DNA from: Eledone cirrhosa
Lineage: Eukaryota
DNA length: 46,410 nucleotides
Direction of reading: 5' to 3'
Assembly (NCBI GenBank): GCA_964016885.1
Contig: CAXHJY010000776.1
Span: forward strand, 1-46,410
Position numbers and translations under genes: made by a program. Shown here one piece after another: positions 1 to 3,442 of this stretch. A model generated the notes under the pieces. It was not told where the DNA came from. It saw nothing but the letters and a program-made list of their open reading frames with translations, and did not search any database. Within the stretch, counting starts at the first letter, position 1. Each line of letters starts with the position of its first letter.

Positions 1-827
1 GATACAATTATTAAGGAAAAGGAAGTTTTATTCACATGATTTAACTTTTTATTGTGTGGACCTGTTACGTGTGTTTTTGCTGAGGATTGAGCTCAAGGTC
101 ACTGTATTTTTTGTTGAATCACTAGTCTGAAGAGTAGATTGATAATGGTGTCAGGTCCATAACTTCTATGGGTGACCTTAAGCCAATCCTCTGTGAAATG
201 TGCATAACAAATTAATACATAATAAAAAAACTAAATACATGTAAATGAAATTTCATCATTTTTCTTAACACACACACATATATATATATCATCATCATCG
301 TTTTTACATCCACTTCTGCATGGGTTGGATATATTCATATTTATGTACCCAGTCCACCTTGTAATGTGGTCATGTTGATGATATGACAAAAAATCTCCCA
401 GACCAACCTTTCAGTTAGTCATTTTGGTGTTATGAAGGAGAATTGGAATTTTAGCCTACATATTGTTGGTAATATTAATGATGTTCCCTGCTGTATTAGC
501 GATAAATTTTCGAGGGTTTTTCTTAGTAGTTTTCATGACGTTATTATTGTTAATTTTACTGATGTAGTATTAACTTGGATATTTACCATGCGGTATTCTA
601 ATTCTATTGTATCTCTCTCAGTTATTTACCATGCGACTCTCAGTTCCTACCTCACAAGCTAGTGACTCTCAGTTCCTACCTCATGGTATATCTTATATTA
701 TATTATTTTAATTTAGTCTATGTTATTTGATTTTAGTTTACCTTATTTTATCTTATTTTACGATTATACTATATTATGTTCTATGTATATAATTTTTAAT
801 TTTTAATTTTATATTATTTTATCTCAT

Positions 828-1294
828 TCCTTACCCTATATTTTATTTTTTATATTTTATATGTAAGTTTGTTATGTATTTCTTTGTATCTCTTTTTATA
901 TATATTATAAGTCTGTTTTTCACCTATTTTTTACCTATTTTTTACCTACTCTTACCTAATCCCATTATCTTATCTACTCTTGTCTGTTCTCTTATCCATG
1001 TGTCTACTCTTGTCTGTACTCTTATCCATGTGTATGCTTGTATGTAACTATATGTTGACAGCACCCCGCCCAACTGTGACTGATAGCACCCCTTATTTTT
1101 ATTTTTATTTTTATTTTTATTCTTATCCTCTATCGTCTATTATTACCTTTCATTCTTCAATGTCTTGGATTTGTTATTGCTTGTATGGTATGTAATTAAC
1201 CTTTATGCTCTGATGAGTCCCACTTATAGTGCGGATGAAACAATGTTAGCAAGTAAAGATATGCATATGCTATAAGCGTTCTTTGTTATTGATT

Positions 1295-1302
<8 letters not shown>
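828..1302 (+). mobile_element. Hammerhead-bearing dispersed repeat, copy 1 (putative Penelope-like pseudo-LTR or retrozyme monomer); may extend further 5'
   Basis: Near-identical to 39502-39999. T-rich, with an internal 30-bp tandem duplication (tctactcttgtctgtwctcttatccatgtg x2), a (TTTTTA)n tract and a hammerhead near the 3' end. Runs directly into a (TA)n array. Confidence 0.75.
1201..1258 (+). ncRNA. Type I hammerhead ribozyme
   Basis: Stem I CUUUA-UGCU/AGCA-(AG)-UAAAG; core CUGAUGA 1210-1216; stem II GUCC-CAC[UUAUA]GUG-(C)-GGAU; GAAA 1237-1240; short stem III AC[AAU]GU; predicted cleavage after GUU (1247/1248). Confidence 0.85.
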
Positions 1303-3172
<1,870 letters not shown>

Positions 3173-3182
3173 ATATATATCT

Positions 3183-3442
3183 AAAGTCTGTCTTAAGCCA
3201 GAAGGCTCATTTGGCCGGTGCTTATCCCAATTTCATGGCATGAAGTGACAGAGTACAAGACTCGCCCCTGAACAGGACACCAGTCCATCGCAAGGTTAAG
3301 CCCCCAGCTACTCATTTTCAGCTGAGTATACTGGAGCAACGTGATATGAAGTGTTTTTGCTCAAGAACACAACACGCAGCCCAGGAATCGAACCCACAAC
3401 ATTATGATCGTAAGTCCAACACCCTTACCACTAGGCCACGTG
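3183..3442 (-). mobile_element. tRNA-derived SINE (CORE-like plus Meta/V-type central domain)
   Basis: Minus strand: A box TGGCCTAGTGG, B box GGTTCGATTCC, then TGTGTTCTTGAGCAAAAACACTT and CCTTGCGATGGACTGGTGTCCTGTTCAGGGG. Confidence 0.8.

Follow-up and report, generated by a model that had tools for sequence, protein, structure and literature searches.

Introduction

Hammerhead ribozymes of metazoan Penelope-like elements (PLEs) were described mostly as single motifs from truncated copies; they combine a long helix II with a short helix I, their helix III is palindromic, and their activity is low even as dimers (PMC4209133). In the minimal form, positions 9 and 10.1 are separated by an additional base, and G10.1 pairs with C11.1; canonical type I hammerheads of metazoans, too, typically have a helix III of 2 bp and a small palindromic loop (PMC4209133). 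In the Hydra clade of PLEs, the reverse transcriptase (RT) carries DKT and RWK motifs, the linker is of the CxCX5C type, and the endonuclease (EN) is without CCHH (PMC8557442). According to our count in File S2 of that paper, U precedes GAA in 17 of 25 Hydra families; helix II is closed by G.U in two of the 25, the palindrome is centred on one base in 16, and the hammerhead is in sense orientation in all of them, with (TA)n targets given for 26 of 27 families (PMC8557442). The function of hammerheads in PLEs is treated there as a question still open (PMC8557442).

Non-LTR retrozymes consist of tandem units, each with a hammerhead, and give highly self-paired RNAs of 170–400 nt, with plentiful transcripts in both linear and circular form (PMC7229834; bioRxiv 10.64898/2026.07.22.740005). 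In animals, they are thought to be moved by PLEs (PMC7229834), and a preprint derives retrozymes from PLE ends (bioRxiv 10.64898/2026.07.22.740005). PLEs make up 6.83% of the genome of Octopus vulgaris and fall into 190 families there (PMC13282606).

Here, we compare with these systems a repeat with a type I hammerhead motif, found in two copies in a stretch of 46,410 nucleotides from Eledone cirrhosa (hereafter, the window).

Repeat copies and their extent

The following parts of the repeat were delimited:

687..827 (+): multi-copy stretch by which copy 1 probably extends further 5'
828..1302 (+): copy 1, part common to copy 2; U-rich, non-coding 3' region, from sequence alignment
39502..39999 (+): copy 2, with a 5' end shorter than in copy 1 and the same 3' end

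Alignment of 828–1302 with 39502–39999 gave 464 matches and three substitutions (890, 921, and 1291) over 467 aligned bases, while the indels of 7, 1, 30, and 1 nt were all located in T-rich tracts. ATG-initiated frames longer than 76 codons were absent from both copy regions, and at least 520 nt upstream of the hammerhead core were non-coding. An earlier note had described two near-identical direct copies with the same hammerhead and no open reading frame, and this description was borne out. A third copy was not detected in the window by BLASTN with 601–1310 as the query. Both copies were solitary within the window, neither being arranged as a tandem or inverted pseudo-LTR pair; they shared the 3' end, differed in the 5' end, and had unrelated flanks. 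The interior of copy 1 contained tandem repeats of 11, 30, and 6 nt. The element has a single GC-rich island (1059–1092), within which a short direct repeat is built around AGCAC. By eye, a similar word is also seen close to the ends of several Hydra consensus sequences (PMC8557442).

Copy 1 probably reaches back to about position 687. A 78-nt contig of the public run X3 (depth 661.5) aligned to 687–759 with three differences, and TATAT is present near 687, the putative 5' limit; the join of this part to position 828 is hidden by a masked stretch at 787–830. The start at 828 proposed earlier holds for the match to copy 2 and probably not for the element itself.

Further upstream, a repeat at 448–660 with internal short duplications was covered more deeply by contigs of X1 and X3 than any other part, one AT-rich bin excepted. 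Because of this deeper cover, and because an X1 contig leaves at 657 into other sequence, it was treated as separate and, adjoining copy 1, probably belongs to another family. At 345–393, a unit of roughly 48 nt showed back-joints in X3, which suggests that it forms tandem satellite arrays in other parts of the genome.

Hammerhead motif

The motif occupies the same place in both copies, about 50 nt from their common 3' end:

1201..1258 (+): type I hammerhead of copy 1; core at 1210–1216 and 1237–1240, predicted cut 1247/1248
39898..39955 (+): type I hammerhead of copy 2; core from 39907, identical to copy 1

In copy 1, the C3–A9 part of the core corresponds to 1210–1216 and GAAA to 1237–1240. 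Helix II (1217–1224/1228–1236) consists of 4 + 4 bp with a bulged C at 1232 and a 3-nt loop, and has a G.U pair at its base, as the earlier note had read in place of G-C at 10.1/11.1. Helix I is formed by 1206–1209 with 1248–1251 (4 bp), followed by an AG bulge and by 1201–1205 with 1254–1258 (5 bp), and is open-ended. Helix III is represented by the palindrome ACA-A-UGU (1240–1246), next to a GUU site with the predicted cut at 1247/1248. Every core position agreed with the consensus of PMC3088659 (C3 U4 G5 A6 N7 G8 A9, G12 A13 A14, A15.1-U16.1, H17). The sequence was identical in both copies, and none of nine substitution sites listed from run contigs fell within 1201–1258.

A type I descriptor matched the window three times (1210, 22002, and 39907), compared to a single match in 500 dinucleotide shuffles of the 35,967 non-microsatellite bases. 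Rfam gave no hammerhead match at the gathering score in the window or at E ≤ 10 in 800–1320, where the two weak matches were irrelevant. The textbook minimal motif at 22002 was likewise missed by Rfam at the gathering score. Since Rfam gave no hammerhead match, the call rests on the anatomy and the descriptor; by these, the repeats carry an intact type I hammerhead motif, and both the earlier identification and its predicted cut at 1247/1248 can be retained.

Outside the window, no exact matches were found in prokaryote genomes. The same core pattern occurred at 57 viral or metagenome loci (22 and 35, respectively), none of which had more than three contiguous stem I pairs, a hammerhead fold, or a BLAST match to the element.

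Comparison with described hammerheads

With the hammerheads of metazoan PLE pseudo-LTRs (Cervera and de la Pena, 2014, PMC4209133), the motif shares a long helix II, a short first part of helix I, a small palindromic helix III, and occurrence mostly in solitary copies. A bulged base in helix II, as here, is known from a Penelope variant of Drosophila virilis (PMC4209133). Unlike those hammerheads, the motif has G.U for G-C at 10.1/11.1 and no extra base between 9 and 10.1, and its helix I can extend further (PMC4209133). In literature searches, no report was found on the activity of hammerheads with G10.1-U11.1.

Judged by its sequence, the motif most resembles the published hammerheads of Hydra-clade PLEs (Hydra-1_Obim, Penelope-17_HM, and Hydra-1_Crog; Craig et al., 2021, PMC8557442), which also are type I and lie near the 3' end. 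The likeness extends to the U before GAA, the odd-centred palindrome, the (TA)n targets, the G.U closure of helix II known from two families, and the U at the cut site of several families (PMC8557442). In contrast, the palindrome is 7 nt long here vs. 9–10 nt in all 25 Hydra families, and the hammerhead of Hydra-1_Obim follows the stop codon by about 130 nt, vs. at least 520 non-coding nt here (PMC8557442). Hydra-clade PLEs also encode RT and EN, neither of which was found with the copies of the window. Identity with Hydra-1_Obim itself was rejected, as the hammerhead and the 3' end differ by eye (PMC8557442). A 14-nt loop II motif had no match in the supplement of PMC8557442.

Predicted folding and mode of cleavage

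In folding of a 60-nt segment, helix II formed with a probability of 0.97–1.0, the proximal part of helix I with 0.27–0.47, and helix III with 0.002. In the monomer, helix III would have at most 2 bp and a 3-nt loop. Three closable stems had been claimed; helices I and II agree with the prediction, and helix III of the monomer does not. In a two-strand fold, the palindromes of the two strands were predicted to pair with each other, in line with the dimer-type stem III of the earlier note. When the whole repeat was folded, the hammerhead helices near the core had predicted probabilities below 0.1, and alternative folds dominated.

According to the folding model, helix I may extend into a longer structure:

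1179..1277 (+): predicted helix I extension, long imperfect hairpin; weakly supported, an equally good fold being reached by 14 of 300 flank shuffles

The loop–loop tertiary contacts suggested earlier did not find support because the motif is without the canonical 6-bp/4-bp geometry (PMC4209133): helix II comprises 8 bp, and helix I runs for 4 bp before it is interrupted. A segment at 1148–1176, considered as a possible "anti-hammerhead," was discarded as being at chance level for such a U-rich strand: 81 of 150 shuffles gave an equal or better duplex, and helix II was lowered as much in 12 of 60.

Efficient cleavage at 1247/1248 is predicted to require the pairing of two motifs via ACA-A-UGU, as in a tandem precursor RNA; solitary copies would be cut slowly or not at all.

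Insertion sites

The surroundings of the two copies were as follows:

1298..3092: (TA)n-type microsatellite, likely target; directly adjoins the 3' end of copy 1
39420..39496 (+): tRNA-type SINE head, cut off at the start of copy 2, outside the family (78% match, 59 nt)
39497..39502 (+): TTATAT left of copy 2, candidate 6-bp target-site duplication, repeated at 39994–39999

Copy 2 interrupts the tRNA-type head inside a TA-rich satellite. The head, which we take to be that of a SINE from its A/B-box anatomy, matches another such head at 3381–3439 (−). The TTATAT hexamer is also present three times inside copy 2, which weakens its reading as a target-site duplication. Between copy 2 and the satellite, 90 nt (40000–40090) had no other match in the window and are possibly the rest of the interrupted SINE. 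Both copies were located at TA-rich sites, in keeping with the (TA)n preference of the Hydra clade, a trait common to Naiad and other clades and therefore not diagnostic.

A fixed 3' end combined with variable 5' ends is the pattern left by target-primed reverse transcription. Since both copies are intact on both sides of the cut site, we infer that the template RNA of each was either uncut or re-joined.

Other elements of the window

A second, unrelated hammerhead was found at some distance from both copies:

21998..22033 (+): hammerhead of the classic PLE minimal type; predicted cut 22029/22030

It has an extra A after the core, a GGAC/GUCC helix II, and an AACGUU palindrome. As far as its sequence indicates, this motif shows that PLE-type motifs are present in the genome of Eledone cirrhosa. 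A frame ending about 75 nt upstream of it resembles, in our view, the C-terminus of a PLE endonuclease; Pfam gave no match for this frame.

Two pieces of APE-RT non-LTR retrotransposons were located on opposite strands at 33533–35314 (+) and 36400–37206 (−), the latter with a PHD finger after the RT; named matches of the neighbouring LINE were from a crab, a lancelet, and a priapulid (40–48% identity). A Tc1-type transposase in two frames (30072–31088, +) was accompanied by an inverted-repeat pair at 29769–29980 and 31197–31394. Perfect inverted repeats (18374–18441 and 20158–20225, 68/68) surrounded an open frame at 18741–19208, for which no Pfam match was obtained; the segment 18374–20225 is possibly a young DNA transposon or an inversion.

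Family size and age

A search of public runs listed 24, of which four were aligned to 290–1300, with 24 of 676 pieces viewed. Part of 940–1295 was present in 20 of the 24 listed runs, and at least half of its words in six. The only run recorded as RNA among the holders contained 0.06 of the sampled words, in what was a weak search. In run X3, 592 contigs aligned to 290–1300; among them, a 77-nt contig with one difference on 1004–1080 had a depth of 2804, and the depth was 4.7 for a longer contig of 415 nt and 16.4 for one of 1133 nt. Contig depth is not a copy number, and summed depth was not used for ranking parts of the element. The run contigs nevertheless indicate a multi-copy family with many near-identical members, probably hundreds or more. 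No joint linking the 3' end to an earlier part of the element was found in the four aligned runs, where contigs can drop such joints; the only back-joints were those at 345–393.

With the octopus substitution rate of 0.0036 per site per million years (PMC13282606), if applicable, the two copies would have split near 0.9 million years ago, an estimate with a wide error, as it is based on three changes. The earlier proposal that the family is young and made up of retroelements related to Penelope or to retrozymes is supported, with three substitutions in 467 bases and multi-copy occurrence in X3.

Horizontal transfer was not inferred from runs labelled as several organisms, X6 and X7 having given two and six contigs. 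A break at 1218 in X6 was likewise not accepted as ribozyme cleavage: it joins a GANTC site to GATC and presumably is a Hi-C ligation junction.

Nature of the element

We consider it likely that the repeats are 5'-truncated 3' ends (the pseudo-LTR region) of a recently active PLE, or a short non-autonomous derivative of one. The common 3' end, variable 5' ends, unrelated flanks, TA-rich junctions, and multi-copy family all argue for this. According to such a scheme, the GIY-YIG endonuclease of the PLE would nick TA-rich DNA, and its reverse transcriptase would copy the RNA from a fixed 3' start, usually stopping early. Against the PLE reading, the motif is without the extra base 9/10.1 and the G10.1-C11.1 pair of the minimal PLE hammerheads, its palindrome is shorter and the non-coding stretch before it longer than in the Hydra comparisons above, its helix III would also suit a canonical metazoan type I motif, and the core-proximal helices are improbable in the fold of the whole repeat. 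No RT or GIY-YIG domain linked to either copy was detected by a six-frame motif scan or by Pfam on one upstream frame. As upstream sequence yielded no remnant of PLE coding regions, truncation of an autonomous element is indistinguishable here from a short non-autonomous form.

Within the PLE reading, a Hydra-clade partner is the best lead, tentative but to be taken seriously. A more specific version, which seems rather unlikely to us, is a dispersed, non-tandem, non-autonomous element of approximately 610 bp (687–1297) moved in trans by a Hydra-clade PLE via a cut and re-joined RNA. Literature searches revealed neither a Hydra-clade partner of the family nor a description of the family from cephalopods. 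As ribozymes, this particular family and its variant of the hammerhead have probably not been catalogued, the kind of element being already known; the family may already be among the PLE families of the Octopus vulgaris repeat library. That this was a "hidden system," as the earlier note put it, is not upheld: in animal genomes, PLE ends that carry a hammerhead are most often solitary, according to PMC4209133, and the unrelated motif at 22002 in the same window also counts against it.

The copies could instead be solo offspring of a non-LTR retrozyme, with tandem arrays elsewhere in the genome being transcribed, cut, circularised, and reinserted by a PLE. Like the animal non-LTR retrozymes (Cervera and de la Pena, 2020, PMC7229834; Li et al., 2026, preprint), the repeat is non-coding and of low GC and carries a type I hammerhead, with a helix I fuller than in minimal PLE motifs; in addition, monomer fractions of retrozyme families vary from 0 to 1 with consensus lengths of 51–972 bp (bioRxiv 10.64898/2026.07.22.740005), and our view was that of 46 kb of the genome. 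However, no tandem units were seen, the 5' extents of the two solitary copies differ, the element has at least 470–610 nt, and its RNA is not self-paired as described for retrozymes (PMC7229834), the whole-repeat RNA folding worse than shuffles (z = +1.17). The missing joint from the 3' end into the element, given that contigs can drop such joints, and the level of at most 0.06 in the RNA run, given the weak search, speak in the same direction. We therefore regard a retrozyme origin as decidedly unlikely, and the retrozyme and circular-RNA branch of the initial proposal did not gain support. The PLE and retrozyme readings nevertheless grade into each other, because monomer fractions span the whole range and an origin of retrozymes from PLE ends has been argued.

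It appears quite improbable that the motif is a non-cutting passenger on the 3' end of another non-LTR element or was copied by DNA-level duplication. The G.U at the base of helix II and the dominance of alternative folds in the full context would fit a passenger, as would the finding that eight of nine tested Xenopus retrozyme dimers were uncleaved in vitro (bioRxiv 10.64898/2026.07.22.740005). The agreement of every core position with the published consensus (PMC3088659) argues against it; so does the lack of listed substitution sites in the motif, a point of little weight in a young family, and the unrelated flanks speak against segmental duplication.

A Pol III-driven, SINE-like hammerhead element similar to the schistosome repeats, with the tRNA-type head directly adjoining copy 2 as the promoter, is highly improbable: copy 1 lacks a head of this kind, the candidate TTATAT duplication suggests that copy 2 was inserted into a SINE, and the reading fails because 15 runs of at least four T, beginning with one at 39515, separate the head from the hammerhead. 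At such runs, transcription by Pol III would stop.

Significance for Penelope-like elements

On the preferred PLE reading, a young and near-identical family with a hammerhead fuller than the usual minimal form would be a convenient test case for comparing cleavage of the monomer and the dimer, and the same family would also suit testing of a cut-and-rejoined template. If the trans-moved 610-bp element proved true, it would stand midway between the pseudo-LTRs of PLEs and tandem retrozymes and would offer a recently active system for testing what the hammerhead does in PLEs.
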